This document shows positions 1-36,034 of a stretch of 64,000 nucleotides of DNA, piece by piece; positions within the stretch are counted from its first letter, which is position 1; the number at the start of each line of letters is the position of its first letter. Position numbers and translations under genes: made by a program. The notes beneath the pieces were generated by a model that saw only the letters and a list, made by a program, of their open reading frames with translations, made no database searches and was not told the origin of the DNA. Source of the stretch: Bacteroidota bacterium (lineage in GTDB: Bacteria > Bacteroidota > Ignavibacteria > UBA10030 > UBA6906); assembly GCA_040756745.1 (NCBI GenBank), contig JBFLYO010000007.1, positions 47,621 through 111,620 on the forward strand. The letters run 5' to 3'.

Positions 1-517
1 AGAAATCTCTGCGCGAGACCGGGTCGACTCCCGTCGTCGGCTCATCGAGGAAGATGATTCTGGGACGATGGATGAGCGTGCACGCAAGGGCGAGCTTCTG
101 CTTCATGCCTCCGGAGAGCTGCTCGGCAAGCCGGTGACGGAAGGGGGTCAGCCGGGTGAATTCGAGCAGTTCCTTACGCCGGTCCTTGTAGTCGAACACC
201 TCGTTTGTCTCCGAGAAGAATTCGATGTTCTCGTCCACCGTCAGGTCGCCGTAGAGACTGAAGCGCTGCGAGAGGTATCCAATCTCCTTCTTGATTTCAC
301 CCGATTTTTGTACGAGGTCGTGACCGAGAATGGTTGCCGTACCGGACGTCGGCGTCAGAAGGCCCGTCAGCATGCGGAACGTCGTCGTCTTGCCCGCACC
401 GTCGGGACCGACGATGCCGAACATCTCGCCCCGCCCGATCGTCAGCGTCAACCCGTCCACTGCGGTGAGGTTCCCGAACGTCCGGGTCAGTCGCTCTATT
501 TCTATGATCGGTGTCAT
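1..517 (-). CDS. ABC transporter ATP-binding protein (first ~172 codons; continues past the left edge)
   Basis: My own minus-strand translation from the ATG at 517 gives MTPIIEIERLTRTFGNLTAVDGLTLTIGRGEMFGIVGPDGAGKTT (Walker A), and RIIFLDEPTTGVDPVSRR (Walker B) at the edge. It is not in the ORF track because no stop lies in the window. ATGA overlap with the HlyD gene stop. Confidence 0.85.
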   Translation of the reverse strand, partial: MTPIIEIERLTRTFGNLTAVDGLTLTIGRGEMFGIVGPDGAGKTTTFRMLTGLLTPTSGTATILGHDLVQKSGEIKKEIGYLSQRFSLYGDLTVDENIEFFSETNEVFDYKDRRKELLEFTRLTPFRHRLAEQLSGGMKQKLALACTLIHRPRIIFLDEPTTGVDPVSRRDF

Positions 518-1443
518 GGTGTCCGCGTGCGGATGTCGATTGTCGCATCGGCCGGCATCCCGGGCTTGAGCAGTTGCTCTGGATTCGGGACTTCGATTTT
601 CACTCCGAACACCAGCCTCGTGCGATCGTCTTTGGTTTGCACATTCTTGGGGGTGAATTCCGCCTTGTCCGATATGTAGATGATCGTTCCCAAGAGCGGC
701 TTGTCCCGATACGCGTCGATGTACACTTGTGCCTCCTGGCCCAGCTTTATGGAGGCAAGCTCCACTTCGGAGACGTAGATCATCAGGTGGACTCTGTCCA
801 GGCGAGAGATGCGGAACAGCGAGCCATTCGGCATCACCATGTCCCCCGCTTCGACAGCTTTCTGCGTAACAACCCCTTGCATCGGCGCGACCACATTCGC
901 ATCGGAGAGCTTTTTTCGGGCCCCTTCGACCTGGGCGACGGCAAGGTCGCGCTTGGCGCGCGCCGCTTCGATTTCCTCGACACGCGAGCCGCGCTTCATC
1001 TTCTCGTATGCCTGCTGCGCAACGACGAACCTCGTTTGCGCATCGTCGAATTGCTTCCGTGCAATGCTGTGTGCTTTGTAGAGCTCGTCGGCGCGTTTCA
1101 GATCTTCCTGGGCGTTTCTGAAGGTTGCCTCCGCCTGCAGAATGTCTTCCGCGCGAAAACCCTTCAGGGTCAGCTTGTATTGCGCCTCGAGGGCTGCCGC
1201 GTTGGCCTCTGCCTGCTTGAGCTGGATGACGAGGTCCGTGCGATCGATCAGCGCGAGCGTGTCGTGCTTCCCGACCTCTGCCCCTTCGTCAACAAGCAGT
1301 TGCATGATCTCGCCACCCACCTTGGCGCTGACGGTCACTTCCGTGGTCTCGATGGTGCCGGAGGCTGTGATTTCTCTCTTTTCTTCGGTTGAGCAACCGA
1401 CGATGAGAAATGCGAGAATGAGTGTCGCTCCCAATTTCATCAT
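514..1443 (-). CDS. HlyD-family membrane-fusion (periplasmic adaptor) protein
   Basis: Track ORF 514..1542. Likely true start is MMKLGATLILAFLIVGCS (lipoprotein-like signal, AGAGGA 5 nt upstream). Long coiled-coil stretches and the C-terminal ..TPKNVQTKDDRTRLVFGVKIEV.. are typical of HlyD/EmrA adaptors. Confidence 0.85.
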   Translation of the reverse strand: MMKLGATLILAFLIVGCSTEEKREITASGTIETTEVTVSAKVGGEIMQLLVDEGAEVGKHDTLALIDRTDLVIQLKQAEANAAALEAQYKLTLKGFRAEDILQAEATFRNAQEDLKRADELYKAHSIARKQFDDAQTRFVVAQQAYEKMKRGSRVEEIEAARAKRDLAVAQVEGARKKLSDANVVAPMQGVVTQKAVEAGDMVMPNGSLFRISRLDRVHLMIYVSEVELASIKLGQEAQVYIDAYRDKPLLGTIIYISDKAEFTPKNVQTKDDRTRLVFGVKIEVPNPEQLLKPGMPADATIDIRTRTP

Positions 1444-1456
1444 GATATCCTCTGTG

Positions 1457-1603
1457 TTAGGTATTTGTACGCTTAACGATGGTGCGGCGGTGTTGCTGAC
1501 GATCTTGTTCCTGCTTGCGGTAGGCAAGTTCAGCGCCGGCATATGCCAGAAGAATCAATCCAGCCGTGAGCACCACGGTCCAGAGTATCACTGTACTCCA
1601 CAT
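1457..1603 (-). CDS. 48-aa single-pass membrane peptide, first cistron of the efflux operon
   Basis: Hand translation: MWSTVILWTVVLTAGLILLAYAGAELAYRKQEQDRQQHRRTIVKRTNT, stop TAA. GGAGG lies 8 nt upstream of the ATG. It ends 13 nt before the HlyD start. Below the ORF-track size cut-off. Confidence 0.5.
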   Translation of the reverse strand: MWSTVILWTVVLTAGLILLAYAGAELAYRKQEQDRQQHRRTIVKRTNT

Positions 1604-1640
1604 TGTCGTTTCCCTCCGTTGAATGGAATGTGATTTCCAT

Positions 1641-1660
1641 TAGGTCAAGCACCGTGCCAG
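1641..1660 (-). promoter_or_regulatory. sigma-54-type -24/-12 promoter candidate
   Basis: Minus strand reads CTGGCACGGTGCTTGAC, against the consensus YTGGCACGrNNNTTGCW. GG and spacing are correct, but the -12 element is TTGA instead of TTGC. It sits about 40 nt upstream of the small ORF and directly downstream of a sigma-54 activator gene. Confidence 0.4.
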
Positions 1661-1720
1661 GTCCGTGACTGCGGAAACAGGACGGAATCAACAACCTTGG
1701 GGACAACAAGGGGAGAGAAG

Positions 1721-1739
1721 TGCGAACGAATGGTTCGCA
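1721..1739. promoter_or_regulatory. perfect inverted repeat TGCGAAC-N5-GTTCGCA, candidate enhancer (UAS) site
   Basis: 7-bp perfect arms, centred about 95 nt upstream of the predicted sigma-54 start site, in the 1604-1815 spacer. Confidence 0.4.
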
Positions 1740-1815
1740 GGAGGATTTCCGATTTGGCGGAAAGCTATTGAAGGATCAACGGTTGCGGGGGCGAGCAGAA
1801 GGAACGCAGCACAGC

Positions 1816-3225
1816 TTACCCGGCCGAAAGCAGTTCAGGCGCCTTTAATCCCAGCTCTTTCATCTTGTTCTGCAGCAGTCGCCGGTCCATCCCCAGCGCA
1901 CGTGCAGTATGCGACACGTTCCAGCGATTGTTTCGCAGTCCCTCAAGAACGAAGTTGCGTTCAAGTTCTCTCATGTAGTCGTCCTTGAGCTTCTTCTTTG
2001 CTGAGAGAAAGGCCTGGTATGAGGTCGGGAGCGATTCCGATTCACCCGAGCCCGTGAGATGCAAATCAGAAGGAAGATCATCGATCGTGACGTAGTCCCC
2101 GCCTGCGCCTACCATCGCGCGCACGACGATGTTTTCCAGTTCGCGCACATTGCCCGGCCATCGATGGGATTTCATGTATGTCAGCGCGTTTGGCTCGAAG
2201 CCCTTCAGATCTTTCCCGATTTCGTTCTTATGCTTCACCAGGAAGTGCTGGGCGAGCAACGGGATGTCTTCTGTACGTTCGCGCAACGGCGGGAGCTGAA
2301 CACTGACGACGTTCAACCGGTAATACAGGTCGCTCCGGAAGCGATGAGCTTCGACCTCCGCGCGCAGCGTCCGGTTTGTGGCGGCGACGATGCGTACGTC
2401 GAGCGCAATGGCTTCGCTCCCTCCGACCCGGACGATGACCTGATCTTCCAGTGCGCGCAACAGCTTCACCTGCAGGTCGAGCGGAAGCTCGCCGATTTCG
2501 TCAAGGAAAAGGGTGCCGCCGTGCGCCTGCTCGAACTTGCCGATCCGCCGGGCGGTCGCTCCAGTGAAGGCGCCTTTCTCGTTTCCGAAGAATTCGCTTT
2601 CCAACAATTCGCGCGGGATGGCTCCGCAGTTCACAGCAACAAACGACTGCGATGCGCGCGGGCTTGCGGAATGTATCGCTCGTGCGATAAGCTCTTTCCC
2701 CGTCCCGGTTTCCCCCTCAATCAACACCGTGAATGTTGTCCCCGCGATCTGCTGGACGCTGTCCAGGATCGCCTGCATTCTCGCGCTTGCCGTAACGATT
2801 GCACTGCTGCCCGCGAGGGTCTGCAATTGTATCCGCAGCCGTTCGTTCTCGCGGGCAAGGCGTGCGTGCTGCGCCGCACGCGTGAGCGCAAGGTCGAGCT
2901 GGTCAAGGTTCACCGGCTTCACCACATAGTCAAATGCCCCTTCCTTCATCATGGCAACGGCATTCTCAATCGTTCCGAACGCCGTCATGATGATGACCGG
3001 AACCGGGCGATCCAGCTTCCTCACTTCACGCAACACCGCAGCGCCGTCGATGTCAGGCATTTTCAGATCTGTGACGACGATATCGACGGGGCGCTTCCGC
3101 AGCAGCTCAAGCGCCGCACCTCCGTTTTCGGCAAGGTGGAGTTCGTACGTCTGCTGCAGGTTCACTTCGAGGATACGCCGTGTCTTTTCCTCGTCGTCGG
3201 CAATCAACAGATGCAGTTTGCTCAT
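1816..3225 (-). CDS. sigma-54-dependent two-component response regulator (NtrC/AtoC family)
   Basis: Receiver domain (LLIADDE..VVTDLKMPDIDG), AAA+ core with GETGTGKE and the GAFTGA loop (EKGAFTGATA), and a C-terminal Fis-type HTH. Confidence 0.9.
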   Translation of the reverse strand: MSKLHLLIADDEEKTRRILEVNLQQTYELHLAENGGAALELLRKRPVDIVVTDLKMPDIDGAAVLREVRKLDRPVPVIIMTAFGTIENAVAMMKEGAFDYVVKPVNLDQLDLALTRAAQHARLARENERLRIQLQTLAGSSAIVTASARMQAILDSVQQIAGTTFTVLIEGETGTGKELIARAIHSASPRASQSFVAVNCGAIPRELLESEFFGNEKGAFTGATARRIGKFEQAHGGTLFLDEIGELPLDLQVKLLRALEDQVIVRVGGSEAIALDVRIVAATNRTLRAEVEAHRFRSDLYYRLNVVSVQLPPLRERTEDIPLLAQHFLVKHKNEIGKDLKGFEPNALTYMKSHRWPGNVRELENIVVRAMVGAGGDYVTIDDLPSDLHLTGSGESESLPTSYQAFLSAKKKLKDDYMRELERNFVLEGLRNNRWNVSHTARALGMDRRLLQNKMKELGLKAPELLSAG

Positions 3226-5348
3226 TGGCGAATTCCGGCAATGGGAAGTTCAATGGAGAACGTCGTTCCACCGGTCCCGGACACGAACGAGATCTCCCCT
3301 CCGATGGCGTGGACCATCATGTAGACGATGGGGAGGCCCAGCCCTGTCCCCGCCTGTTTTGTCGTGTAGAACGGGTCGAAGATTTTCGTGTGAAACTCGG
3401 GCGGGATCCCCCCTCCCGTGTCTCGTACCGCGACCACAATGCGTTCGTCCCTGCGGCCGGCCGTGAGCACAAGCTCTCCGCCGCCGGTCATCGCCTCGAC
3501 AGCGTTCAGCCCAAGGTTCATCAAGGCGCGTTCGAGGTGCCGGGGCGACGTGGTAACCGGAGGCAGCGATTCGCAGATCTCTTTCCGGATGCGGACCCCT
3601 GAGGCATCGCCCCGGGGCTGAAGCGCCGCCATGACGTTGTCGATTACTTCGACGAGGTTCACTTCCTCCCACACGGGCGTGTGGGGTTTGGCAAACTGGA
3701 GGAATTCCTCCACGGTGCGGTTGAGTCGATCAGTTTCTTCCAGAATGTATCTCCCTGTTTCCTGATGCAGCTTGCCATTGTCGGGGTTCCTGAGAATCGT
3801 CTGCGCCGAGGTTGCGATGATGTTTAGAGGATTGCGAAATTCATGCGCAATGCCGGCAGTCAGTCTCCCCAGCGCCGCCAGTTTTTCGTTTTGCGCCGCG
3901 CGGAGCTCCTCGGCACGCATCCGTTCTAATAAGCGATTTCGCTCGACACCCAATGCGACTTCGTTGGCAAAGACGGCAAGGAATTCCTCGTCATCGAAGG
4001 TGTATGGCCGGGAGGATTTCTTCGGGCCGACCAGCAGCATTCCGACCGGTCCCTTTTCGCCCAGCAGAGGAACAAGATAGCCGCCGGTAAAGGGCTCAAG
4101 CGTCCCCTTTTGCTCCTCTGCGCATGCCCTTAAGACCTCGGCGACTTCGCGCGGTTTATGGTCGTCGGCCAGGAGCCGCATCAGATCGTCATCGAATCGG
4201 AGGGTCTGATGCGGTGGCAGGACGCCAGGCATTGTCCTCACTTCCTCCCCCGCAACCAGGATGATGCCATCAGAGGCCGAGAGCGTCTCCATCAGAAACT
4301 TCCGTACCGCTGCCGCTAGCTCGGGCAGGCTTGTGATATGGAAGAGAGCCCGGGAGAAACGGATGAACTGCTGGCGGCGGCGGAACATGCTTTGCGAGAA
4401 GAGATTCTCCACCAGTGATTGGATCCGAACGATGAGCGGTCGGAACGCGAGCGCAAGCAGCAGGATCAGCAGAACTTCCAGCACAACCGAATCCACGTCG
4501 AGTTGTTTCCCCAAGGTCTCCGAAATGTTCTTAATGACAATGAGGTAGAACGCGAAGATCAGTCCCGTCACAACGGAATACGCGAGGCCCTGTTTGCCGA
4601 GCCGGCGGAGAACGAGGAGGCGGTTGCCGAGCACAGCGTAGGCGAACGAGACACTGATCAGCAGGAAGAGGATTCTCGAGGCATAGAAATGCACGGCCTC
4701 GTGGTGACGCAGCACATCGAGCAGAATGACGAGCACGGCGAAACCGACCGTGCCGAGCAGGATCGTGCCGATCCGGTATCGTTCCTTTCGTACCTGCGTC
4801 CCCCTGAGTTGAACAACCAAGTTGCCGACCCCCCAGGAAAGATGACCGAGCACCGTTGCAAACATTGCCGCGTCGAGCACACCGCCAGAGGTATTCACAA
4901 CATAACAGTAGACCCCCTGCGCCGTGAAGCGGTGGAGCTCAAGCGGCTGGAAAAGACCAAGACCCGCGAGGATCGAGAACAGGAGCGGGAGGACGAGGAA
5001 GAGGGGCCGGACCGGCAGACGGTCGAACCGGGAGTGAATCGAGCAGGGGAACGAAAACGAAAGGAGGAGGAAGAACGTGGAGGCGAACAGCAGGGCTGCG
5101 ACCATGATCGCGCCCCCGATGGCGGCGGAATCCGGGGTGGAGCTATTCACCACGACAACATCGGCGACCCCCCAAAGAGCGAAGCAGAAGATGAGCAGGG
5201 CGAATAGTCTGTGGGCGCGGCTCCTGAGGTTGTCGAGGAGGACGATGATGACGAGCGAAATGTTGATTCCGATCGTCAGCAACGAAGGCAGTGAATATGA
5301 CGACAAGAGAAGGTCCTCCGCTGGTGCCTCTTGACACAAAGGTACCAA
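3222..5348 (-). CDS. membrane sensor histidine kinase (multi-TM N-terminus, GAF-like middle, HisKA/HATPase_c)
   Basis: H-box AHEFRNPLN and G-boxes DTGGGIP and GTGLGL. About 8 hydrophobic segments at the N-terminus. ATGA overlap with the regulator gene. Confidence 0.85.
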   Translation of the reverse strand: MVPLCQEAPAEDLLLSSYSLPSLLTIGINISLVIIVLLDNLRSRAHRLFALLIFCFALWGVADVVVVNSSTPDSAAIGGAIMVAALLFASTFFLLLSFSFPCSIHSRFDRLPVRPLFLVLPLLFSILAGLGLFQPLELHRFTAQGVYCYVVNTSGGVLDAAMFATVLGHLSWGVGNLVVQLRGTQVRKERYRIGTILLGTVGFAVLVILLDVLRHHEAVHFYASRILFLLISVSFAYAVLGNRLLVLRRLGKQGLAYSVVTGLIFAFYLIVIKNISETLGKQLDVDSVVLEVLLILLLALAFRPLIVRIQSLVENLFSQSMFRRRQQFIRFSRALFHITSLPELAAAVRKFLMETLSASDGIILVAGEEVRTMPGVLPPHQTLRFDDDLMRLLADDHKPREVAEVLRACAEEQKGTLEPFTGGYLVPLLGEKGPVGMLLVGPKKSSRPYTFDDEEFLAVFANEVALGVERNRLLERMRAEELRAAQNEKLAALGRLTAGIAHEFRNPLNIIATSAQTILRNPDNGKLHQETGRYILEETDRLNRTVEEFLQFAKPHTPVWEEVNLVEVIDNVMAALQPRGDASGVRIRKEICESLPPVTTSPRHLERALMNLGLNAVEAMTGGGELVLTAGRRDERIVVAVRDTGGGIPPEFHTKIFDPFYTTKQAGTGLGLPIVYMMVHAIGGEISFVSGTGGTTFSIELPIAGIRQ

Positions 5349-5405
5349 GGGATTCGATGGATATCAAATCGCGAATGGAGCTGCTGTTCTGAGTCATCGG
5401 AGTTC

Positions 5406-5493
5406 AGAAGATAACCGCAAAGGCGCGAAGGGCGCAATGGAAGATTCCCTCTCTGCGTCCTCGGCGCCCACCTGGCGACCTTTGCGTTTATCT
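5406..5493. repeat. hairpin formed by two inverted GATAACCGCAAAGG-type units
   Basis: AGAAGATAACCGCAAAGGCGCGAAGG (5406-5432) and its imperfect reverse complement GCGACCTTTGCGTTTATCT (about 5475-5493). A third unit lies at 9848-9874. Confidence 0.6.
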
Positions 5494-5495
5494 CC

Positions 5496-5603
5496 TACGC
5501 CCGCGCAAAGAGGCCGATCTTCGTGATCGCCGTCTTCAGCAGCTCCTCCCCCGCTCCATCCAGCCGACAAAACTGCCTGATCTCGCGGGTCTGCGTCGAT
5601 TGG
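5496..5603 (-). pseudogene. orphan fragment of the comM/yifB 3' region
   Basis: 74/74 nt with one mismatch to 10689-10762 inside the intact comM. It translates to ..[31 protein letters not shown] then a stop. No flanking comM sequence. Confidence 0.75.
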
Positions 5604-5775
5604 TCAAGGATTGCACGTTGGGAAGGGGGGACTGCAAGTCAGCCCAGAGGCCGGCGGCTCGCCTGGCACTGCTCGTTGACAACTTACATCTTGGAACGGG
5701 ATGCGGCGGCCTGAGCCCGGGTTCAGCCCCAATCGCAGCACTTCAGTCTTTCAACGACGTTTTGTATAATGGGGC

Positions 5776-6459
5776 ATGCACATCCTGATAGTTGAAGATC
5801 AAAGGAAGGTAGCCAACGCTTTGGCAGACGGCCTGCGGCGTGATGGCTTCAAAGTGACGCTCGCAACTGATGGAGAGGAAGGTTTCTTTCTCCTGAACTC
5901 AAGTAGGGTCGATCTTCTCGTTCTGGACCTTGGGCTTCCGAAGCGTGATGGCATCGAGATTCTCCGGACAATGAGACAAAGAAGGATCAACATTCCAGTC
6001 ATGGTACTTACTGCCCGTGACTCCGTCGAAGATCGGGTTCTCGGTCTCGAAAGTGGAGCTGATGACTACCTGGTGAAGCCATTTGCTTTCCCGGAACTGC
6101 TTGCCAGAGTACATGCTCTTCTGAGAAGAACCAAGGAACAGAATGAAACGACGTTGACTATCGGTGATCTTGCATTGGATCTGAAGACTCGCAGAGCAAC
6201 CCGTGGACCGCACCCTCTTTCACTCACAGCCAAGGAACTGGAGCTCTTGGAATACCTCTTGCGAAGCAAGAACAGTGTTGTCTCAAGAGAGATGATTGTT
6301 CGCGATGTGTGGCATGCAACTGAACGGGCTACACCTCTTGACAATGTGATCGATGTTCACATCGCCCATCTCAGAAAGAAGATCGACGGTCCCTTCGAAC
6401 TCAAGCTTCTCCACACCTTGAGGGGAGTAGGATTCATGGTGAGTCTGATGAAACCATGA
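5776..6459 (+). CDS. OmpR-family response regulator, heavy-metal (CusR/CopR/CzcR) type
   Basis: Receiver domain plus winged helix. Contains ..DYLVKPFAFPELLARVHALLRR.. and ..DNVIDVHIAHLRKKID....LHTLRGVGFMV, as in heavy-metal regulators. Confidence 0.85.
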   Translation: MHILIVEDQRKVANALADGLRRDGFKVTLATDGEEGFFLLNSSRVDLLVLDLGLPKRDGIEILRTMRQRRINIPVMVLTARDSVEDRVLGLESGADDYLVKPFAFPELLARVHALLRRTKEQNETTLTIGDLALDLKTRRATRGPHPLSLTAKELELLEYLLRSKNSVVSREMIVRDVWHATERATPLDNVIDVHIAHLRKKIDGPFELKLLHTLRGVGFMVSLMKP

Positions 6460-7856
6460 GACTTGCCGGGCTTCGTCATATCCGTTTCCGATTGGCCCTC
6501 TGGAGCATCCTCGTGTTTGGGGGGATCCTCGTCTTGTATGCATCCGGAACGTCGTGGTTCTTCCTCAAGACTCTGAATGACCAACTGGATGCAAGCCTGA
6601 AGGAAGACTTGGAACTGGTCGACCAAATGCTGGTGCATTCGGTGGAGGGAGGGGCACCCATCGACATTCATGGCGAGAATATCAACGAGCTTGAACGCTT
6701 CCTGGAAATATGGTCGATGGATGGTCAGCTCATCTATCGAAGCAAGACCCTCGGAGCGCATGCGCTAGGTCCCGCGCCTGACACCACGGGTGTGGGCACA
6801 ACCACACGAATCCACTCACACACACTCTCGGACGGAACTCAACTGAGGGTTGCCGAAAAGCTCCATTTCCACGGAGCAGCCCATAGACTGATTCGCCTGG
6901 GGGTGAGCGAAGAGGGACACTTCTCGAATGTCAATCGGTTCGTGAGGCTGATCTTGATTGGTATTCCAGTCGCGCTGCTCCTCGTGAGCGTCAGTGCCTA
7001 CTGGATGGCGCGAGGAGCGCTAAGACCCATTGACGTCATGGCGTCTGCGGCAAGACGCATGGGAACCTCCGACTTGTCCGAGCGGATTCCTGTCAGGAAT
7101 CCCGATGACGAGCTCGGCCGCCTGGCCTCAGCATTTAACGAGCTTCTCGCAAGGATACAGAAGTCGTACGATCAGCTCAAGCGATTCACATCCGATGCCT
7201 CACATCAGCTTCGAACGCCGTTGACTGCGATGAGAAGTGTTGGCGAAGTAGGACTGCAAGTCGGTCGGTCAGCAGAAGAGTACCGTGAAGTCGTGGGCAG
7301 TATGCTTGAAGAGAGCACACGGTTAACCAAGTTGGTCGACAGCCTGCTGTTTCTGACGCGTGCAGATGCCGGAAAGCACCGCCTGAATGTGGATCGACTT
7401 GACCTCCTGGAATACGTGAGGGAGACAACCGACCTGTTGGGCGTCCTCGCCGATGATAAGCATCAGCAGATGAGGGTTGATGGGAAGCCTGGTATCATGA
7501 TCCGTGCGGATCGGTCGTTGCTCTGCCAGGCGCTATTGAACCTCGTCGACAATGCGATCAAGTTCACTCCTGAAGGGGGAAGTATTGCAATTCGTGTCGG
7601 AGTGAATGGCGCCCAACAGGCGTTCGTGGATGTCGTCGATTCCGGTCCAGGGATTTCACCGGAGCACCTCGAGAGCATTTTCGAAAGATTCTTTCGTGCT
7701 GACAAAAGCAACAGTCCGGGGGCAGGTCTTGGGTTAGCTGTCGCCAGATGGGCGGTTGAAGCACATGGCGGCACGATCACCGTAGAGAGTAACCAGGGTT
7801 CTGGCTCCGCATTTCACGTTGTCCTGCCACTCGACCCACGCCTTACGAAACCTTAA
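6456..7856 (+). CDS. heavy-metal-type sensor histidine kinase (CusS/CopS-like)
   Basis: Two TM segments flank a periplasmic domain, followed by HAMP, H-box FTSDASHQLRTPLTAM, DSGPGISPE and GAGLGLAV. ATGA overlap with the regulator gene. Confidence 0.85.
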   Translation: MRLAGLRHIRFRLALWSILVFGGILVLYASGTSWFFLKTLNDQLDASLKEDLELVDQMLVHSVEGGAPIDIHGENINELERFLEIWSMDGQLIYRSKTLGAHALGPAPDTTGVGTTTRIHSHTLSDGTQLRVAEKLHFHGAAHRLIRLGVSEEGHFSNVNRFVRLILIGIPVALLLVSVSAYWMARGALRPIDVMASAARRMGTSDLSERIPVRNPDDELGRLASAFNELLARIQKSYDQLKRFTSDASHQLRTPLTAMRSVGEVGLQVGRSAEEYREVVGSMLEESTRLTKLVDSLLFLTRADAGKHRLNVDRLDLLEYVRETTDLLGVLADDKHQQMRVDGKPGIMIRADRSLLCQALLNLVDNAIKFTPEGGSIAIRVGVNGAQQAFVDVVDSGPGISPEHLESIFERFFRADKSNSPGAGLGLAVARWAVEAHGGTITVESNQGSGSAFHVVLPLDPRLTKP

Positions 7857-8099
7857 GCAAGTCTTCAGGAAGACTTAAGTTGAACTCCTAGACTATTCTC
7901 AGATACCTTCTCTTGGTTGGTGTGGTCCGAGAAGCGTATCGGCAGCACCCACGTCCTACCGCTCTGGCCTCCAGAATATATGTACGCATTGTTGGGGAGC
8001 GAAGGTGGAACAACGCCAATCGGAAGCTCCAACCTCAGCTGCCTTCCTGCTCATTCCATCAATCGCATAACTTCCCAGATCAGACCAAGGAGCAAGCTC

Positions 8100-9650
8100 A
8101 TGCCACAGATGATACGATCACACCTGTTGATTCTCCTGCTGACCCTGCTTGCGACATCTATCATGCATGCTCAGATTACACGTCAGCAATGTTACCTGTG
8201 CCATGCAAACCCCGGCCTCAGCAAGACAATCACCCTTTCGACGGGATCTACCGAAACGATTCCGCTGTATGTAGACACCCTGAAGTTCAATGCGAGCCTC
8301 CACAGTGCTCTCTTGTGTGTCCAATGCCATACCGATATCACTCCTGCAAACTTGTACAACCATTCGGGGTCGAACTCGCTGCCCAAGAGCTACGGTGGCT
8401 GGGCCCGCTTTTCGGCCAAGAATGACACCGTTACTCCGGGGGGCGAGCGGACACGCAACTACTACACAGCAGCCTCCATGTCGTGCAACAAAAGCGGGTG
8501 CCATCCCCAGCAAGCTGCATTTGATTCCTCGACGCATCATGTTACGTGGCGACAAAAGCAGGCACACGTGCATACGGTGAACGGCGAATCGGTTGGCGAG
8601 GCGTATGTGTTCAATGACTGCAATCGCTGCCACACGTCTTGCGCGACGTGCCACTTCAAGTCAAATAAGGTTCAGAAGATCGGCGGCGATGTCCTCGCAA
8701 TATGGGACAGCCTACAGTTCTTTGGAGACGGGGGGTCACTCTCTCGCTCAGGAGGGTTCACCGAGTATGCAATGGACTGGACCGTGAACGTCGAATCCCA
8801 CACCTTCTATACAGGAGACAGCCTCAGGGCAACCAACGCGGTATGTCAATCCTGCCACCTCGGGTACTACAAACCACCGATGTACGGCTTCCTCTCCGAG
8901 GATCCACCATATCCGAAAGCATGGGGAAGCAACATCCGTCGGCATCCACAGACACAGGAGCTGACACTGAGCCAGCAACATTCGTCAAGAAAGTGCGCCC
9001 AATGCCACACGAATGTTCATGCGTATCCCGGCCGCCAGCACAACTGGCAGGAAGAGGGCGACGTCAAGTGCCAGACATGTCATACGATGACAAATCACTA
9101 TCCGCAGCACACAACGGTGGACTGCATCTCGTGCCACTTCACAGGGTTCGGAAGGTCAAAGGGACAAAATGCACATGACGTATGGCGATGGCCTGTCGCG
9201 AGTAACCGCGTACGTCCGCTTGTGATGAAGTACAACGAAGCAATCAACTGGTATCCACACACGATAGTCCGTCCCGACACCAATACCTCCTGTGCGGGCA
9301 AGTGTCATTACGAGGGGAACCTCATCGGGGCATCAACGATTACCAGCGTTCCAATCTCAAAAGAAGTGCCGGGTTCGTTTGCGCTGGAACAGAACTACCC
9401 GAACCCATTCAACCCGAATACGACCATCCGATTCGCCATTCCGACCAAAGAACTCGTGAGAATTGCGGTGTACGATGTACTCGGCAGATTCGTGACCACA
9501 CTGGTGAACGAAACGACGGAGCCCGGGACGTACAAGATTCTGTGGAATGGCATTGATCACGCCGGTATGCAGGTGTCGAGCGGAGTTTACTTCTACAGGA
9601 TTGAAGCAGGTACATTCAGTTCTTCCAGGAAGATGTTGCTGGTGAGGTAG
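8100..9650 (+). CDS. secreted multihaem c-type cytochrome with C-terminal T9SS sorting domain
   Basis: Start reassigned to MPQMIRSHLLILLLTLLATSIMHAQ (signal peptide, AAGGAG upstream). Eight CXXCH motifs (CYLCH, CVQCH, CNRCH, CATCH, CQSCH, CAQCH, CQTCH, CISCH) plus CNKSGCH and CAGKCH variants. The last ~85 aa (LEQNYPNPFNPNTTIRF..SGVYFYRIEAG..KMLLVR) match the Por secretion tail pattern. Confidence 0.85.
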   Translation: MPQMIRSHLLILLLTLLATSIMHAQITRQQCYLCHANPGLSKTITLSTGSTETIPLYVDTLKFNASLHSALLCVQCHTDITPANLYNHSGSNSLPKSYGGWARFSAKNDTVTPGGERTRNYYTAASMSCNKSGCHPQQAAFDSSTHHVTWRQKQAHVHTVNGESVGEAYVFNDCNRCHTSCATCHFKSNKVQKIGGDVLAIWDSLQFFGDGGSLSRSGGFTEYAMDWTVNVESHTFYTGDSLRATNAVCQSCHLGYYKPPMYGFLSEDPPYPKAWGSNIRRHPQTQELTLSQQHSSRKCAQCHTNVHAYPGRQHNWQEEGDVKCQTCHTMTNHYPQHTTVDCISCHFTGFGRSKGQNAHDVWRWPVASNRVRPLVMKYNEAINWYPHTIVRPDTNTSCAGKCHYEGNLIGASTITSVPISKEVPGSFALEQNYPNPFNPNTTIRFAIPTKELVRIAVYDVLGRFVTTLVNETTEPGTYKILWNGIDHAGMQVSSGVYFYRIEAGTFSSSRKMLLVR

Positions 9651-9695
9651 CGTCTCATGTCAGAGCGACCGGCCAGCAGGTCGCTCCCTTTCGGA

Positions 9696-9729
9696 CCCCG
9701 ATCCGATTCTTCGGATCGGGGTCTTTTGT
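9696..9729 (+). terminator. rho-independent terminator after the cytochrome gene
   Basis: CCCCGATCCGA-TTCT-TCGGATCGGGG followed by TCTTTTGTT. Confidence 0.75.
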
Positions 9730-9778
9730 TGGTGTTTCATTCTTGGTTCTTTTTATAGAGGTAGCACGACACAATCCT

Positions 9779-9798
9779 CCCGCCTGCCGGCGGGCAGG
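9779..9798. repeat. loop-less relative of the 50-nt hairpin repeat stem
   Basis: CCCGCCTGCCGGCGGGCAGG equals the stem arms of the 22643/42605 repeat without the CTCTCTGA loop. It is preceded by CACAATCC, the reverse complement of GGATTGTG. Confidence 0.4.
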
Positions 9799-9847
9799 CA
9801 AACAGATCCCAACGCCTTACATCGGAAGGCCGTGAGGAAACATTTCA

Positions 9848-9874
9848 CCTTCGCGTCCTTTGCGGTTATCTTCT
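9848..9874 (-). repeat. third GATAACCGCAAAGG unit (inverted relative to 5406-5432)
   Basis: Reverse complement AGAAGATAACCGCAAAGGACGCGAAGG versus AGAAGATAACCGCAAAGGCGCGAAGG at 5406. Confidence 0.6.
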
Positions 9875-9944
9875 CGCCGGAGTTGCTTGACCGCAACGAC
9901 GCAACGGATGCGCAAGCAGGTCCTACCCGAGAGCTTCTGATGAA

Positions 9945-9992
9945 GCACCAAATCACAAACCCCAAATTCCAAACAAATTCCAATAACCCAAG
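9945..9992 (+). repeat. A/C-rich arm (GCACCAAATCACAAA..) flanking the four-helix-bundle gene
   Basis: 36/43 identical to 10381-10423. Its CCAAACAAATTCCAAT is complementary to about 10478-10493. Confidence 0.6.
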
Positions 9993-10010
9993 AAGAGAAC
10001 GACGAAAATA

Positions 10011-10364
10011 CTAGGGATTGCCTTGTGATGCCTTGAGAATCGCACTGAAGATTTTCAAGAGCTCTTGTGACTCTTTGATCAACCCTTCCTGTTCAGAGCC
10101 CTGTCCGTCCCCCGGTGTAACCAGGCGCAGCCAGTAGCCGCTCTCTTTTACCTCTTTCCTGCTGATTCGTATTCTCATCAGGAAATCTCTTTTGCCAAGT
10201 GCTTCATTTGCCTCAATGTAATTGGCGCCAACAGAGCCGGAAGACCTGATGACCTGTCGACCATACTCACAATTCGAGAGATCCTTTGGAAGGCGCTTCA
10301 CAAAATCGCGCACAGCTCTTGCAAAGCGTTCGGTCCTCTCTTCAAGGTCGTACTGACCGGCCAC
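10011..10364 (-). CDS. four-helix-bundle protein (23S rRNA intervening-sequence protein / bAvd-like family)
   Basis: 117 aa, GTG start with AGGAG 6 nt upstream. ..SSGSVGANYIEANEALGKRDFLMRIRISRKEVKESGYWLRL.. fits the family pattern (ANIAEG-like motif, E..YWL). AT-richer than its surroundings. Confidence 0.75.
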   Translation of the reverse strand: MAGQYDLEERTERFARAVRDFVKRLPKDLSNCEYGRQVIRSSGSVGANYIEANEALGKRDFLMRIRISRKEVKESGYWLRLVTPGDGQGSEQEGLIKESQELLKIFSAILKASQGNP

Positions 10365-10380
10365 GATGACTCCTGAGATA

Positions 10381-10548
10381 GCACCAAATCACAAAACCCA
10401 AATCTCAAACAAGCACCAATTACCGAAATCTGAAATGCTCCAAACAGGCGGCCGTTTCCGTCATTTCGGTCTTGAGAATTGGAATTTGTTTGTGATTTGA
10501 TGCTTGGGATTTGGTGCTTGTTTGTGAATTGGTGCTTGAGATTTGGTC
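10381..10548 (+). repeat. palindromic A/C-rich element, copy E1
   Basis: Arms GCACCAAATCACAAAACCCAAATCTCAAACAAGCACCAAT.. and their complement surround a core CCGAAAT..AAACAGGCGGCCGTTT..ATTTCGG. It ends 5 nt from the comM stop. Confidence 0.7.
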
Positions 10549-10552
10549 ATTC

Positions 10553-17174: not shown

Positions 17175-17936
17175 TCAAAAACTCCGTTGCACCGTGAGCA
17201 TGACACCGTGGGGCGCCGCAGGGGATCCCAGGATCTCCGCACCGAGCCGGAGATCACCGAGCGCATCGTCCTGCGCCGCGTTCTGCGCTATCGCCGCCCG
17301 GGCGGCATTGATGGCGCTGGCGACGTGATTGACAAGGATCGCCGCAACGACAAACTTCCGGTTGTTATACATCGTCTCGCCCCGGATCCGCTCTTCGCGG
17401 AATGCGTGCCGGGACGCCTCTGCGTCCCATTGCCATGCATACCCGAGGGCGGGATCGTAGACACGGGAGAGGTCCCTGTCGCGGAGTTTTTTGTCGTTGT
17501 ACTCCGCCAGTGAGTTGAAGTTGCCTACGTCCACGTAGAGCTGGTCGTCCTTTACTGGCGCCATGAGCGACGCATGCGCTGAGGCAAAGACCCGTGCGTC
17601 GTCGCGGAGGGCGTTTCCCGAAATTTCAAACGCCGCGTAGGTGATCCAGAGAACCCCCTCAGCGATCAGAAAATACTTGCCGGAGCCGAAATCTCCCGTA
17701 TACACTTCACCCATGCCGGGAAGGATCAGGGAGTATATGGCTGCAAGCCCCGGCGTTTTCCGGTCGGCGGCTCCGCCCGTCGGCGGCAGCATTCCGTCTC
17801 CGTTGACCGCAACGGCGGCCGGAAGGCCAAACAGGTCGAGACAGATCCCGGCGCGCGTCTGCGCCGGACCCGAGGGGAGATTCTCAGCATGCAGGGGGAG
17901 AGCAAGGAAAGCGCAGCCGGTCAGGATCCATCGCAT
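17175..17936 (-). CDS. hypothetical exported/membrane protein
   Basis: Start moved to MRWILTGCAFLALPLHA (signal-like). No family recognised with confidence. Confidence 0.5.
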   Translation of the reverse strand: MRWILTGCAFLALPLHAENLPSGPAQTRAGICLDLFGLPAAVAVNGDGMLPPTGGAADRKTPGLAAIYSLILPGMGEVYTGDFGSGKYFLIAEGVLWITYAAFEISGNALRDDARVFASAHASLMAPVKDDQLYVDVGNFNSLAEYNDKKLRDRDLSRVYDPALGYAWQWDAEASRHAFREERIRGETMYNNRKFVVAAILVNHVASAINAARAAIAQNAAQDDALGDLRLGAEILGSPAAPHGVMLTVQRSF

Positions 17937-17976
17937 TGTTGCCACTGTCAGACTCCAGGTAGAGAGATGCCGCTGT

Positions 17977-19308
17977 TTAGGTCGTGGACGATGGTAACAA
18001 TCGACGAGAATGCAAGGCTCCTTTCGTTTGTCGCAGACGGGCGAACACGGCATCCCAGCGCCCGTCGAAGACCATGACGGGGGTCTCCAGGCGTTCCTCG
18101 AGACTGGAAATCGTTTCGTCGTCAAGGAGTAAGCCGTCGGCATTCAGGATGTCGGGCGGCAAGAGGACAAGATCACCGCGCATTTTCCCTGCCAACGCAG
18201 AATATAGACATTTCCCCGAAAGAAGTCCAGCCACCGTCACGCTCCGGCCGAAGAGTCTGTTCTGTGCGACTTCGAGCCGGACCTCAAGCCCGCAGACCGC
18301 CGACAGCCGGGGAAGGACCCATGACCGCAGGAATCCTTCCGCAAGTTCTCCCGTTACGAGGGTAAGTACTCGGCGCGAACGAAGTCGGGTGGGAAATGTG
18401 CGAGATTGTCCATCAAATTCTCCAAGGAAGGATCGGACGAGGCCTACGCCGTTTTCGATCTGCGGAAAGCCGTCGTACGCAGAACCGGGCGGAATCTCCC
18501 TCCCCGCGAGGATGTAAAATTCATCTGAAGCGTACACAAAGGCACGGCCGCATTCCTTTCGGAAGCGTTCTTGCCAGCGGTCAAGAGCATCGAGCAGGGC
18601 GACCGCGTATTCGCGATCGACTTTGTTCAATTGCGCCAGCCCGAAACGGTGATCGGTCAGCCCTACGGGGACCAGCGCCAGAGAAATGACATGCCTGCGA
18701 AAGGCGTACAGATCCTCGACGGTCTTCGCCAGCGTCCCCCCATCGTTGATCCCCGGACAGAGGACGATCTGCGTATGCATATCGATGCCGTTGTCATGCA
18801 GCAAGCGGATCTTCTCGAGGATGCGGTCGTCTTTCTTGAGCCCCATCAGCCGCCGGCGGATCTCGAGATCCGTGACGTGCACGGAGATGTACTGCGGCGA
18901 GAGGCGCTGATCGATGATCCGCTGGAGGATGGCGGGACCGGCATTGGTCATCGTAGTGTAGTTGCCGTACATGAAGGAGAGCCGGTAATCGCCGTCGCGA
19001 AAGTAGAGCTGGTTCCGCATCCCCTGGGGGTTCTGGTCGACAAAACAGAATATGCAGTCGTTCCCGCAGGAGAGGATCTTCATCTCCTCGAAGTCGAGTC
19101 CAACCCGCTCCCCTTCCTCCTTTTCGACGTCGTAGATGGTGACTTCGCCGTCGCGTGCGACCTTCAGGGAAAGCTCCGGATCGCTTTCATGGAACCGGTA
19201 GTCGATATGGTCGAGCACCTTCCTGCCGTTCACTTCCAGCAGTTCGTCCCCCACCCTGATGCCGAGCTCATCGGCGATGCTTGCCGGTTCCACAAGAGTG
19301 ATCTTCAC
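17977..19308 (-). CDS. PDZ plus DUF512-type radical-SAM-like protein
   Basis: GTG start overlapping the mtaB stop (GTGA). PDZ-like ..IADELGIRVGDELLEVNG.. followed by CGNDCIFCF..RLSFMYGNYTTMTN typical of DUF512 proteins. Confidence 0.75.
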   Translation of the reverse strand: MKITLVEPASIADELGIRVGDELLEVNGRKVLDHIDYRFHESDPELSLKVARDGEVTIYDVEKEEGERVGLDFEEMKILSCGNDCIFCFVDQNPQGMRNQLYFRDGDYRLSFMYGNYTTMTNAGPAILQRIIDQRLSPQYISVHVTDLEIRRRLMGLKKDDRILEKIRLLHDNGIDMHTQIVLCPGINDGGTLAKTVEDLYAFRRHVISLALVPVGLTDHRFGLAQLNKVDREYAVALLDALDRWQERFRKECGRAFVYASDEFYILAGREIPPGSAYDGFPQIENGVGLVRSFLGEFDGQSRTFPTRLRSRRVLTLVTGELAEGFLRSWVLPRLSAVCGLEVRLEVAQNRLFGRSVTVAGLLSGKCLYSALAGKMRGDLVLLPPDILNADGLLLDDETISSLEERLETPVMVFDGRWDAVFARLRQTKGALHSRRLLPSSTT

Positions 19309-34684: not shown

Positions 34685-36034
34685 CTATTCTGCGCTCTTC
34701 GCCAGCCACGACTCCAGCGCCATCAACGGTGCGGTCGGCATGAGCAGGGCGTGATCGTTGTACAGACGGGCGTCGAAGCGGTACCCCTTCATAAATCCCC
34801 CGGTCGATGAGCCGATCGGCAGGCTTCCTGAACCCACTCCGCGCCGGTATTTCTGCGTAATGCTACCGTAAATATCGAGGATCTGCCTCTTGCGGGTCAC
34901 GTTATCCGCCGCGGCAAGGCCGCCGGTTAGCGCAACAATCGATGCCTCGATCCGAAACCGGTTCGAGCCGCTGTTGGTCGCATTATCGTTCATCGTGTTC
35001 GCGATAATAACGTTTTTGTACGCGAGCAGGCCGATAAAATCCCTGGAGTTCGGGTTGGATCGCGGACTGGTCCTGCAGAGTAAATCATTCGTGACGAAGA
35101 TATTTCCCCCCCTCCCGGCGGCATCAGGGACCGTGAGCACCGACACCTTTCCCTGAATGGTCCCTTCCACGAACACGTCGACCCCCGGCTCGTAGATAAT
35201 CCCGCTCGGTGGCACCGTCATGACCGTGTCGGTCGAACGAAATGCACCATAGCCGTTGTTGCTTGTTCGTTTGAAGTCCCGGAAGTAGCGGACCATCTGC
35301 TGGCCGCTGGCATCGACAAAGAACTGGAGGTGTAGTTCCTTCTTCGTGGCGACCGTGATGAGACCGTTACCCGCCGTGAACGACGAGTTGAAGTCCCCCC
35401 CGCCTGCAAGCATCGGGGGCACGGGCACGGGATCAAACGCCGTAGGGAACTCCACCAGGACACCCGACTCGGGCCTCTGCGTAAAAACCGGCACCGTCCC
35501 TGCGGTGATCGTCACAGGTCTCAGAGTCGTCACGCGTCCGTTGAAGACCGGCATGATCGTCGATCCGGAATAGTGGTCCATCCGGAGCGTATTGTTGCTG
35601 TGGAGAGCACCATATGCGGTGTCGTATGTCGTCCAGGGGACGGACCCGTCATCATTGTCCGTCAGGACAACGTACCGGTCGAAATACCCAGGCTGGAGAT
35701 AGAACACGACCTGTTGCACCTGGCGGTCCCCTCCCGTGGCAGGAAAGGCGCCCGTGGAGGTCACCTGGATCTTGGGTCCTGCGTTCTCGATCGTCACATC
35801 GAGCGTCCCCCCGTTGAAGTCCACATTGTCGCGCCAGTGGCCCCTGAAAAACTTGTTGAAGTACATCGCATCCGCCGCCATGTTCGCTCCGCTCAGGGCA
35901 ATATCGAACGCGCTGGCGCGGTTGAAATACATCGCGAAATTGTCCACCGCGTCACCGGTGTTCATGGTGGCGTTCACGACGATCATTGCCGCAGTCATCG
36001 CTGCCACGAGCAGGAGCGCAAGCCGCCCGGTCAT
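34685..36034 (-). CDS. PilX-like protein: N-terminal hydrophobic helix plus large beta-rich domain
   Basis: MTGRLALLLVAAMTAAMIVVNAT.. resembles PilX_N-type anchors. The remainder has no recognisable catalytic motif. Confidence 0.55.
   Translation of the reverse strand: MTGRLALLLVAAMTAAMIVVNATMNTGDAVDNFAMYFNRASAFDIALSGANMAADAMYFNKFFRGHWRDNVDFNGGTLDVTIENAGPKIQVTSTGAFPATGGDRQVQQVVFYLQPGYFDRYVVLTDNDDGSVPWTTYDTAYGALHSNNTLRMDHYSGSTIMPVFNGRVTTLRPVTITAGTVPVFTQRPESGVLVEFPTAFDPVPVPPMLAGGGDFNSSFTAGNGLITVATKKELHLQFFVDASGQQMVRYFRDFKRTSNNGYGAFRSTDTVMTVPPSGIIYEPGVDVFVEGTIQGKVSVLTVPDAAGRGGNIFVTNDLLCRTSPRSNPNSRDFIGLLAYKNVIIANTMNDNATNSGSNRFRIEASIVALTGGLAAADNVTRKRQILDIYGSITQKYRRGVGSGSLPIGSSTGGFMKGYRFDARLYNDHALLMPTAPLMALESWLAKSAE

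Follow-up and report, generated by a model that had tools for sequence, protein, structure and literature searches.

Among described surface cytochromes, MtrC, OmcA and MtrF of Shewanella are decahaem lipoproteins that are exported by the type II secretion system (T2SS) and docked on the MtrAB porin-cytochrome complex; OcwA of Thermincola is a surface multihaem cytochrome of a monoderm, and types anchored through SLH domains or to the cell wall also exist. Outside the Proteobacteria, the placement and timing of surface multihaem cytochromes are largely obscure. Type-A cargo of the type IX secretion system (T9SS), such as the gingipains and Flavobacterium chitinase, carries a Sec signal together with a C-terminal beta-sandwich of ~80 amino acids (aa; TIGR04183). 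Two-component systems of the CusRS/CopRS/CzcRS/HprRS group, in which HprS is a paralogue of CusS, combine a kinase bearing two transmembrane (TM) segments, a periplasmic sensor of ~120 aa, HAMP, HisKA and HATPase domains with an OmpR-type partner encoded by an overlapping gene. Here we describe a locus that resembles each of these systems in part, at 5776-9650 of a stretch of 64,000 nucleotides (nt) from an Ignavibacteria-lineage Bacteroidota bacterium (GCA_040756745.1, contig JBFLYO010000007.1, positions 47,621 to 111,620; hereafter the window). OmpR-type two-component systems, multihaem cytochromes and T9SS tails are each known singly; here they are assembled into what is, on balance, probably a self-contained cassette in which a protein of extracellular electron transfer comes with its own regulation.

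The response regulator (5776..6459, + strand; 227 aa) is of the OmpR/PhoB family and joins Response_reg and Trans_reg_C domains, with D51 as phospho-acceptor alongside T79 and K101. Its reading frame shares 4 nt (ATGA) with that of the sensor histidine kinase (6456..7856, +; 466 aa), which has two TM segments, HAMP, HisKA (H250) and HATPase_c domains. A gap of 243 nt separates the end of the kinase gene from the start of the cytochrome gene (8100..9650, +), whose 516-aa decahaem c-type precursor comprises a predicted signal peptide (residues 1-24; 8100-8171), a core with ten haem motifs (residues 26-430; 8175-9389) and a T9SS type-A C-terminal domain (CTD; residues 433-513; 9396-9638). An intrinsic terminator follows (9693..9724, +), with a 14-bp stem containing 9 G-C pairs, a 4-nt loop and a T-rich tail. 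The original prediction had described a CusR/CusS-type pair with overlapping genes, a cytochrome gene on the same strand and a clean terminator, and this layout was recovered in full; its account of the cytochrome also stands with respect to motifs, signal peptide and tail, the start codon excepted. The mechanically called open reading frame (ORF) begins at TTG 7917, a candidate that we rejected as it lacks a ribosome-binding site and homologues begin at ATG 8100. We take ATG 8100 to be the real start because it has AAGGAG 7 nt ahead of it, opens into a signal peptide and coincides with the beginning of all homologues. No further multihaem ORF and no second T9SS tail occur within the window, in which the cassette consists of no more than sensor, regulator and a single cargo.

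The DNA around members of the cytochrome family, in which relatives of the window genes were located by tblastn, yielded 15 distinct loci with enough flank for comparison (related loci carry L numbers below). An OmpR-type regulator and a kinase lie within 6 kb of the cytochrome gene in 12 of them, all from Ignavibacteria or uncultured Bacteroidota. The genes are co-directional in the window and L014, divergent in L002, L006, L008, L012 and L019, and separated by a gene in L003, L013, L015 and L021, or by a five-gene sulfur/redox cluster in L001; as the arrangements differ between loci, this points to selection for linkage rather than shared descent of one arrangement. As a separate observation, the intervening genes of L001 (4604-7781) encode an ArsR-type regulator, an SQR/FCSD-like flavoprotein, a Redoxin, a 201-aa protein and DsrE, and the family members of L003 and L027 have TauE-family genes beside them; a link of the family to sulfur chemistry is possible.

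A candidate physical basis for this linkage lies directly at the end of the kinase gene. The sequence at 7841..7885 (+ strand; CCTTACGaaaCCTTAAGcaagTCTTCAGgaagACTTAAGTTGAAC) holds four in-phase hexamers (CCTTACG, CCTTAAG, TCTTCAG and ACTTAAG) at an 11-bp period, followed by TTGAAC, with the kinase stop codon falling in the second hexamer; its core reads CCTTAAG-N4-TCTTCAG-N4-ACTTAAGTTG. The 64 kb has a single place where three TTAAG-like units, spaced by 10-11 bp, agree at 14 or all 15 positions, and 50 shuffles produced none; a position weight matrix (PWM) built from relatives scores 23.3 bits at 7852, as against 4.2 bits for the next best site in the window. A CTTAAG-type element also stands upstream of the orthologous cytochrome gene in L008, L009 and, in weaker form, L014; upstream of a gene encoding a Cyc2-like protein in L008 and L014; upstream of an operon in L009 that encodes a T9SS multihaem cytochrome of 675 aa together with a 228-aa protein; and, as a two-repeat form, ahead of the regulator gene in L014. 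It is always followed by TTG and, ~14 nt further on, by a conserved ATTCTC...CAAnTT block, and it is kept in L009 though no two-component system lies within 8 kb.

Other members of the family carry different elements. We assign to class A the systems of the window, L008 and L014 (regulators 61-64% and kinases 40-44% identical to those of the window); the L001 system is intermediate (regulator 45%, kinase 33%), and class B regulators are 32-37% identical to that of the window. The class B element, ATGAAAA-N3-TTTTCAT(T)ATTGTT, is equally conserved, stands ahead of the cytochrome and Cyc2-like genes, and is present also in L005 and L017 (Stygiobacter), both of which lack a nearby two-component system, while in L001 ATGAAG-N4-CTTCAT precedes both the regulator gene and the cytochrome gene. 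The recognition helix of the window regulator is NVIDVHIAHLRKK, and across the family recognition helices track the elements, with NVIDVHIxHLRKK in class A, NLVDVHVKNLRHK in L001 and NxVExxVKNLRKK in class B. Because the element is conserved, unique within the window and matched by co-varying helices, there is good comparative evidence that the repeats are the predicted binding site of the regulator, with the cytochrome gene its sole target in the window, and that they serve a promoter of the cytochrome's own. The cytochrome gene thus probably has a regulator-dependent promoter ~215 nt ahead of its start codon, and is probably not simply co-transcribed with the kinase gene. Together, linkage in 12 of 15 loci and a conserved repeat operator before the cytochrome gene bear out the earlier proposal that two-component system and cytochrome form a functional unit, and we regard the regulatory link between them as well supported by these comparisons.

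The design recalls the pho box of PhoB, in which direct repeats with an 11-bp period replace the -35 element: the window repeats, which recur every 10-11 bp, run directly into a TTG(A) -35/-33-like element whose spacing to the downstream block is conserved, and differ in that each CTTAAG hexamer is itself palindromic and that three to four units are present. A perfect 8-bp palindrome, AAGTCTTC-AG-GAAGACTT, lies inside the operator (7860-7877) and is absent from the repeats of L008, L009 and L014; we considered this hairpin as a terminator and rejected it, since it has no T-run and coincides with the conserved repeats, and read it as part of the operator. The 215-nt leader has no Rfam match at E-values up to 1 and a folding z-score of -0.16, giving no sign of a riboswitch or structured RNA. 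A scan of the + strand from 5300 to 10100 with the sigma-70 consensus returned no promoter, a result that is uninformative as this consensus may not be the type used in this lineage. The E. coli CusR/HprR box is CATTACAAAATTGTAATG (PMC9302797), from which the window operator differs. A CusS/HprS-related system with operators of its own, serving as the dedicated regulator of T9SS-tailed multihaem cytochromes, appears to be new.

The cytochrome itself carries eight CXXCH motifs, one CX4CH (C129-H135) and one CX3CH (C398-H403), exactly the count given in the original prediction, and all 20 of its cysteines fall within these ten motifs, which are invariant in an alignment of 87 homologues. Ten conserved CXnCH motifs and predicted periplasmic export mark it as a c-type multihaem cytochrome. 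Among the 29 T9SS-tailed homologues of Ignavibacteria type, a further eleven histidines outside the motifs are invariant. The hydrophobic core of the predicted signal peptide spans residues 4-27, and its predicted cleavage site carries a conserved A/S-Q. Cleavage is predicted between MHA and QIT (8169-8174), leaving a glutamine at the mature N-terminus that is kept in at least 90% of the 29 homologues and that fits the 'Q-rule' for signal-peptidase-I substrates of Bacteroidetes (PMC5837995).

T9SS-tailed homologues are 51-79% identical to the window protein and, where named, come from Ignavibacteria or from metagenome-assembled genomes (MAGs) of uncultured Bacteroidota; the isolate Stygiobacter electus 09-Me is among them, with a class B element at its locus (L017). 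Distant members (33-45% identical, ~450 aa) lack the tail, and the few that are named derive from MAGs labelled Chloroflexi or Thermoleophilia; in some distant members the place of the tail is taken by SLH (PF00395) or collagen-like (PF01391) domains. The cytochrome core therefore seems, judging from these domain combinations, to be displayed by whatever surface anchor each lineage uses. Three proteins (P0018, P0027 and P0030; 592-615 aa) have an extra domain of ~100 aa between core and T9SS tail, and the distant members include one with an fn3 domain, two with SLH domains and several whose repeats are collagen-like. Members are few: 1.84 billion cluster representatives (clustered at 50% identity), searched exhaustively, yielded 34 at E-values up to 1e-3 and 27 at E-values up to 1e-10.

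Its core has no evident structural counterpart. An AlphaFold2 (AF2) model based on the 87-sequence core alignment is confident (predicted local distance difference test score, pLDDT, 89.3; predicted TM-score, pTM, 0.87), and supersedes a full-length run with 29 close homologues in which the core was poor (pLDDT 48.5) and only the CTD was confident. Foldseek found no match to this model in the PDB at E-values up to 0.001 (the best, at 2.5, is noise), and phmmer searches of the PDB with the cytochrome returned nothing meaningful. The family profile gave just short local matches in the PDB, to NrfA, to the Geobacter dodecahaem cytochrome GSU1996 and to NrfB; neither MtrC nor OmcA was among these, and the cytochrome has no significant match to PF22113, which covers domains II and IV of MtrC-MtrF. 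We conclude from these searches that the cytochrome represents a structurally uncharacterised, small multihaem family without structural relatives, which appears to be new. With MtrC, OmcA and MtrF it shares ten c-type haems, a predicted surface location, a presumed role in extracellular electron transfer and, through its relatives, an association with outer-membrane conduits including an MtrB/PioB porin. It differs from them in lacking both PF22113 and fold matches, in its smaller size (a core of ~405 aa), in the CX3CH and CX4CH variants, in the absence of a lipobox, and in its predicted CTD-directed export by the T9SS rather than the T2SS. The distant members (33-40% identical, without CTD), some with SLH or collagen-like domains and from Chloroflexi and Thermoleophilia MAGs, resemble the surface cytochromes of monoderms; OcwA, however, has no match in the PDB profile search at E-values up to 10, and the anchor of the window protein is the T9SS CTD.

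The tail that gives the cytochrome its predicted route to the surface passes both TIGR04183, with 40.8 bits where 23 are required, and PF18962, with 30.9 bits where 27 are required, upholding the earlier recognition of a Por-secretion tail, and it is modelled by AF2 as a beta-sandwich with pLDDT 78-90, reaching to within three residues of the C-terminus. In keeping with type-A cargo it contains YPNPFNP, GxYFY and a K-hydrophobic tail; the difference is that the cargo here would be a periplasmically matured decahaem cytochrome. Matches to the CTD alone include at least six further T9SS-tailed multihaem cytochromes (P0106, P0108-P0110, P0112 and P0119), which suggests that cytochrome cargo is routine in this group, and many more CTD proteins occur in related loci. 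No T9SS component was found among the ~53 ORFs scanned in the 64-kb window, which are mostly housekeeping genes; the presence of a T9SS in the host genome is supported indirectly, by its Bacteroidota lineage, with which the 93% identity of its ribosomal protein S1 to that of a 'Bacteroidota bacterium' MAG agrees, by the CTD proteins in related loci and by the other T9SS-tailed multihaem cytochromes. The original prediction knew of no described case of such a regulatory system standing with a multihaem cytochrome exported by the T9SS. This agrees with our literature searches, which, in the forms tried (T9SS or type IX secretion combined with multihaem, c-type or Ignavibacteria cytochromes), retrieved no T9SS-exported multihaem cytochromes and no description of a sensor combined with a T9SS-exported ten-haem cytochrome that recurs in Ignavibacteria. 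Public databases label these proteins 'hypothetical' or 'T9SS type A sorting domain-containing protein', and the predicted use of the T9SS to export matured multihaem cytochromes appears to be new.

The partners of the cytochrome in related loci speak for a place in electron transfer. In 7 of the 15 loci there is a Cyc2-like protein of 424-467 aa with a signal peptide, a single CXXCH within ATSQWARKTGxxCxxCHxxxPxL, and a C-terminal ...VMF; in L003, L006, L008, L013, L014 and L015 its gene stands behind the same operator as the decahaem gene. Cyc2 is defined by a signal peptide, a single CXXCH with AxPxFAR[QK][TY] ~3-5 residues ahead and PxL four residues behind, a length of at least 365 aa and a porin domain (Keffer et al. 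2021, PMC8406198). The motif of the partner, ATSQWARKTGLSCNSCHTVFPRL, matches 7 of the 9 Cyc2 positions and has the PxL, with S for P and W for F, and the partner has no match in Pfam or NCBIfam. It thus shares with the fused cytochrome-porin the single CXXCH, most motif positions and the length range; against this stand the two substitutions, a porin part that is putative, and the absence of such a gene from the window. Five loci further encode a 204-aa membrane protein and a small 2x[4Fe-4S] ferredoxin, a pair that may form an inner-membrane electron entry point; the polytopic 204-aa protein (no Pfam or NCBIfam match) and the ~90-aa ferredoxin lie at 5006-5620 and 4732-5019 in L006, and occur also in L001, L003, L013 and L019. 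Genes for cytochrome c maturation (ccm) adjoin in L003 and L006. The most extensive island, L009 1042-15284, encodes an 844-aa MtrB/PioB porin, a 300-aa multihaem cytochrome with Paired_CXXCH domain, a Fer4_5 membrane protein and a PadR regulator, and continues with the decahaem gene (a 77% identical orthologue), a second operator, the 228-aa protein and the T9SS multihaem cytochrome of 675 aa. In L026 and L027, too, PadR genes stand beside the family member, there a distant homologue. Metagenomic surveys have reported that MAGs of Ignavibacteriales encode Cyc2, outer-surface multihaem cytochromes and porin-cytochrome complexes (PMC8478452, PMC6344600, PMC7399161). This context is most economically explained if the decahaem protein forms the terminus, at the cell surface, of a chain for extracellular electron transfer, and the protein likely belongs to an extracellular electron-transfer regulon. 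Of the earlier proposal of a metal-sensing, surface-exposed electron-transfer module, the electron-transfer part is thus strengthened by the pairing with Cyc2-like and MtrB/PioB conduits in relatives; that the sensing is of the heavy-metal type is not established, the relevant hidden Markov model (HMM) scores lying below cut-off.

We propose that the ~120-aa sensor domain of the kinase would detect a periplasmic or extracellular cue, for which a redox-active metal (iron) or a redox/oxidant signal is our best guess, and that the kinase would then phosphorylate the OmpR-type regulator at D51. The phosphorylated regulator would bind the three to four CTTAAG-like repeats abutting the TTG(A) -35/-33-like element, and so activate the dedicated promoter ~215 nt upstream of the cytochrome start codon. 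The precursor would be exported by Sec, receive ten covalent haems in the periplasm through cytochrome c maturation and fold there, whereupon the T9SS would recognise the type-A CTD and carry the holo-protein over the outer membrane, to be surface-anchored or released. A mostly bis-His haem chain could then shuttle electrons between an outer-membrane conduit and redox partners that are insoluble or extracellular, for example Fe/Mn minerals, humics or Fe(II). In relatives the conduit may be the Cyc2-like cytochrome-porin or an MtrB/PioB-type complex; here it would lie outside the window.

Several observations sit less comfortably with this proposal. None of the ~53 window ORFs encodes a Cyc2-like, porin-cytochrome, ccm or T9SS protein, such that the partners are assumed to lie elsewhere. 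A PWM scan found nothing above 4.2 bits that could serve as an autoregulatory operator ahead of the window regulator gene; the operator of the cytochrome gene is unusually far (215 nt) from the start codon, with no convincing -10/-7 element; and in one related locus, L018, no operator was detected and no two-component system lies in the vicinity. As the cytochrome has no detectable structural relative, its conduit role is argued from haem count, histidine count and context, and the weak, local similarity of its profile to NrfA leaves room for a catalytic role.

What the system senses bears on which alternatives deserve weight. The best NCBIfam match of the regulator is TIGR01387 (cztR_silR_copR) at 225.2 bits, under the curated cut-off of 279.2, and the PmrA, CusR and HprR models score almost as high; that of the kinase is TIGR01386 (cztS_silS_copS) at 287.2 bits, just under the cut-off of 292.55. 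TIGR01386 is also the top NCBIfam match of all linked kinases tested, at 294.2 bits for L008, which passes, 288.1 for L001, 261 for L014 and 169-183 for class B. The label 'CusR/CusS-like' is therefore apt as regards top-scoring family, and overstated as regards membership, both scores being sub-threshold. The kinase comprises TM1 at ~9-37, a periplasmic domain at ~38-157 (~120 aa) and TM2 at 158-185, and its cytoplasmic core has as its nearest solved structure that of E. coli HprS (9epn, E-value 2e-35), which is described as the kinase of an HOCl-responsive system (HprS, also YedV; bioRxiv 10.1101/2021.09.09.459708). A sequence search of the PDB with sensor residues 35-165 gave no match at E-values up to 10, the solved CusS sensor, which has His/Met/Phe metal ligands, included. 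The sensor domains of class A and class B kinases align as homologues, with an acidic motif right after TM1 (KEDLE, KEELE or KHESLE in class A and L001; RHEIEH in class B) and, in the class A kinases of the window, L008 and L014, an (S/N)E(E/D)xH motif ahead of TM2. Conserved methionines or cysteines, as Cu(I)/Ag(I) sites need, are absent from this alignment, in which the conserved residues are acidic, with one histidine. In PmrB and BqsS, iron is bound through ExxE and RExxE motifs, which the sensor motifs resemble; this fits a regulon that includes a Cyc2-like protein, and we take it as a lead rather than a test. We consider iron or another redox-active metal the likeliest signal, with an oxidant or redox cue, by analogy with HprS, as a serious alternative.

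Were the system specific for iron, the kinase would sense periplasmic or extracellular Fe(II) or Fe(III), and its regulon, made up of the surface decahaem protein and, in relatives, a Cyc2-like oxidase, would oxidise or detoxify Fe(II) rather than serve metal-oxide respiration. We consider this unlikely, and nonetheless the strongest of the competing explanations. The co-regulated partner in relatives fits most of the motif of Cyc2, an Fe(II) oxidase whose expression may respond to Fe(II), and the acidic post-TM1 motif, the class A (S/N)E(E/D)xH motif and the lack of conserved methionine or cysteine in the sensor all agree with an iron ligand. The resemblance to known iron-binding motifs is, however, short, the window has no Cyc2-like gene, and the lifestyles described for cultured Ignavibacteria are heterotrophy and Fe(III) reduction.

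A role in defence against copper, silver, zinc or cadmium, in which a CusS/CopS-type sensor would induce a surface cytochrome that alters the redox state of a toxic metal, much as cop/pco systems deploy multicopper oxidases, seems rather improbable to us. It draws on the TIGR01386/TIGR01387 matches, including the L008 orthologue that passes, on a ZnuABC cluster that adjoins the system in L002, on an HMA P-type ATPase ~7 kb off in L006, and on a gene for a CusB/HlyD-type membrane-fusion protein in the window itself (514-1542). Between that gene and the cassette, however, stands a different two-component system on the other strand; the window proteins fall under both cut-offs; the sensor has no detectable similarity to the solved CusS sensor; and the operator, with three to four CTTAAG repeats, is unlike the palindromic CusR/HprR box CATTACAAAATTGTAATG. 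The recurrent partners are Cyc2-like proteins, ferredoxin, ccm and MtrB/PioB, not efflux pumps or copper oxidases. Nor is there any metal efflux or copper-oxidase target beside the system in the window, its predicted target being a multihaem cytochrome, in place of the efflux pumps, copper oxidases or MsrPQ of the CusRS/CopRS/CzcRS/HprRS group. The designation 'heavy-metal-type' is thus not established for a system with sub-threshold HMM scores, a sensor without PDB relative, a core nearest to HprS and a divergent operator; it is a family resemblance from which specificity does not follow.

Still less probable is that the cytochrome is a secreted enzyme, an NrfA-like or octahaem-like reductase or oxidase acting on a soluble nitrogen or sulfur compound, rather than a passive conduit. 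The profile does match pentahaem NrfA weakly (8bcx, E-value 9.6e-8), with RHPQxxE aligned with the HPEYE region, sulfur genes (SQR-like, DsrE, Redoxin, TauE) adjoin family members in L001, L003 and L027, and at least one T9SS-tagged protein of Ignavibacteria is annotated NrfA (P0109); but the similarity is confined to two short stretches, no fold match accompanies it, and the cytochrome has neither CXXCK nor another open-site motif. As eleven invariant non-motif histidines suffice for bis-His ligation of ten haems, and as CXXCK is absent, we favour an electron carrier over an enzyme. That the adjacency is incidental, with the system regulating something else and the cytochrome expressed independently, as the 243-nt gap, the lack of an operator ahead of the window regulator gene and three related loci without a nearby two-component system might hint, is very improbable in the face of linkage in 12 of 15 loci in several arrangements, lineage-specific operators before the cytochrome even where the system is distant, and co-variation of recognition helix and operator.

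The proposed regulatory cassette also shows features that may point to a separate origin. An 18-nt perfect inverted repeat brackets it, terminator included, with its left arm, CCTTTGCGGTTATCTTCT, at 5406..5423 (- strand) and its right arm at 9857..9874 (+); a motif search of the window found a degenerate third copy at 5479-5496 (+). The three copies in 64 kb compare with 0.01 expected, and their similarity extends to ~26 nt. GC content at third codon positions (GC3) is 0.52 in the regulator, 0.61 in the kinase and 0.65 in the cytochrome gene, whereas housekeeping genes reach 0.75-0.86 and the genes next to the cassette 0.71-0.75, and the nearest cytochrome homologues come from bins named as if from lower-GC genomes. 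In the two closest relatives reached via YifB (L109 and L110), synteny from S1 to YifB is kept and ends at YifB, and the cassette is absent. A metagenome scan with YifB gave only matches of 75% identity or less, none with the cassette. As synteny in L109 and L110 breaks off right at YifB, reconstruction of the empty site was not possible; a transposase is likewise absent. The low GC3, the flanking repeats and the synteny break all fit the earlier suggestion that the cassette was acquired as a unit, short of proving it.

Beyond the cassette, the window ORFs are mostly housekeeping genes, among them S1, IspH, Cmk, RelA/SpoT, Der, MiaA, CdaA, FolP, the Suf system and acetate kinase. A second, unrelated signalling unit (514-5348, - strand) runs divergently from the cassette, and comprises a 7TM-GAF histidine kinase (3222-5348, -), a sigma-54 NtrC-type regulator (1816-3225, -) and the CusB/HlyD-type membrane-fusion protein (514-1542, -), whose gene probably starts an efflux operon that runs off the window. 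On the other side, a gene for a 23S-rRNA-intervening-sequence-type protein (PF05635; 10011-10364, - strand; GC3 0.55) lies within 9934-10550, framed by 42-58-nt repeats of CCAAAT/CACAAA-like units, direct at 9934-9991 and 10370-10427 and with inverted partners at 10478-10547; it looks like a small mobile or repeat-flanked insert beside the cassette. Further afield, a SulP-family permease fused to STAS and PTS EIIA-2 domains (62091-63941, - strand) is an unusual domain combination, and the ORFs at 17175-18143, 34685-36034, 36048-36686 and 52883-54252 (322, 449, 212 and 237/336 aa, respectively) have no Pfam match at E-values up to 1e-5.

Iron-rich aquifers, anode biofilms and hot springs are recurrent habitats of Ignavibacteria, and the locus offers a compact, testable model of how a surface cytochrome may be deployed in these bacteria, with one sensor, one defined DNA element and one cargo. 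If confirmed, the proposed cassette would show that ten-haem proteins can pass through the T9SS in fully matured form, define a small cytochrome family whose structure is uncharacterised, and supply a regulatory marker of extracellular electron-transfer regulons for the annotation of Bacteroidota metagenomes. A broader proposition, which we find plausible while placing it somewhat short of probable, is that the T9SS is the export and display route for electron-transfer cytochromes in Ignavibacteria and related Bacteroidota, and that the CusS/HprS-related system with its new operators is their master switch, sensing extracellular iron or redox state and not copper or silver. If true, the switch would govern a regulon of surface decahaem protein, Cyc2-like porin-cytochrome and other T9SS multihaem cytochromes, and T9SS display would constitute a third solution to the placement of surface cytochromes, besides the T2SS-exported lipoproteins of Proteobacteria and the wall or S-layer anchoring of monoderms.

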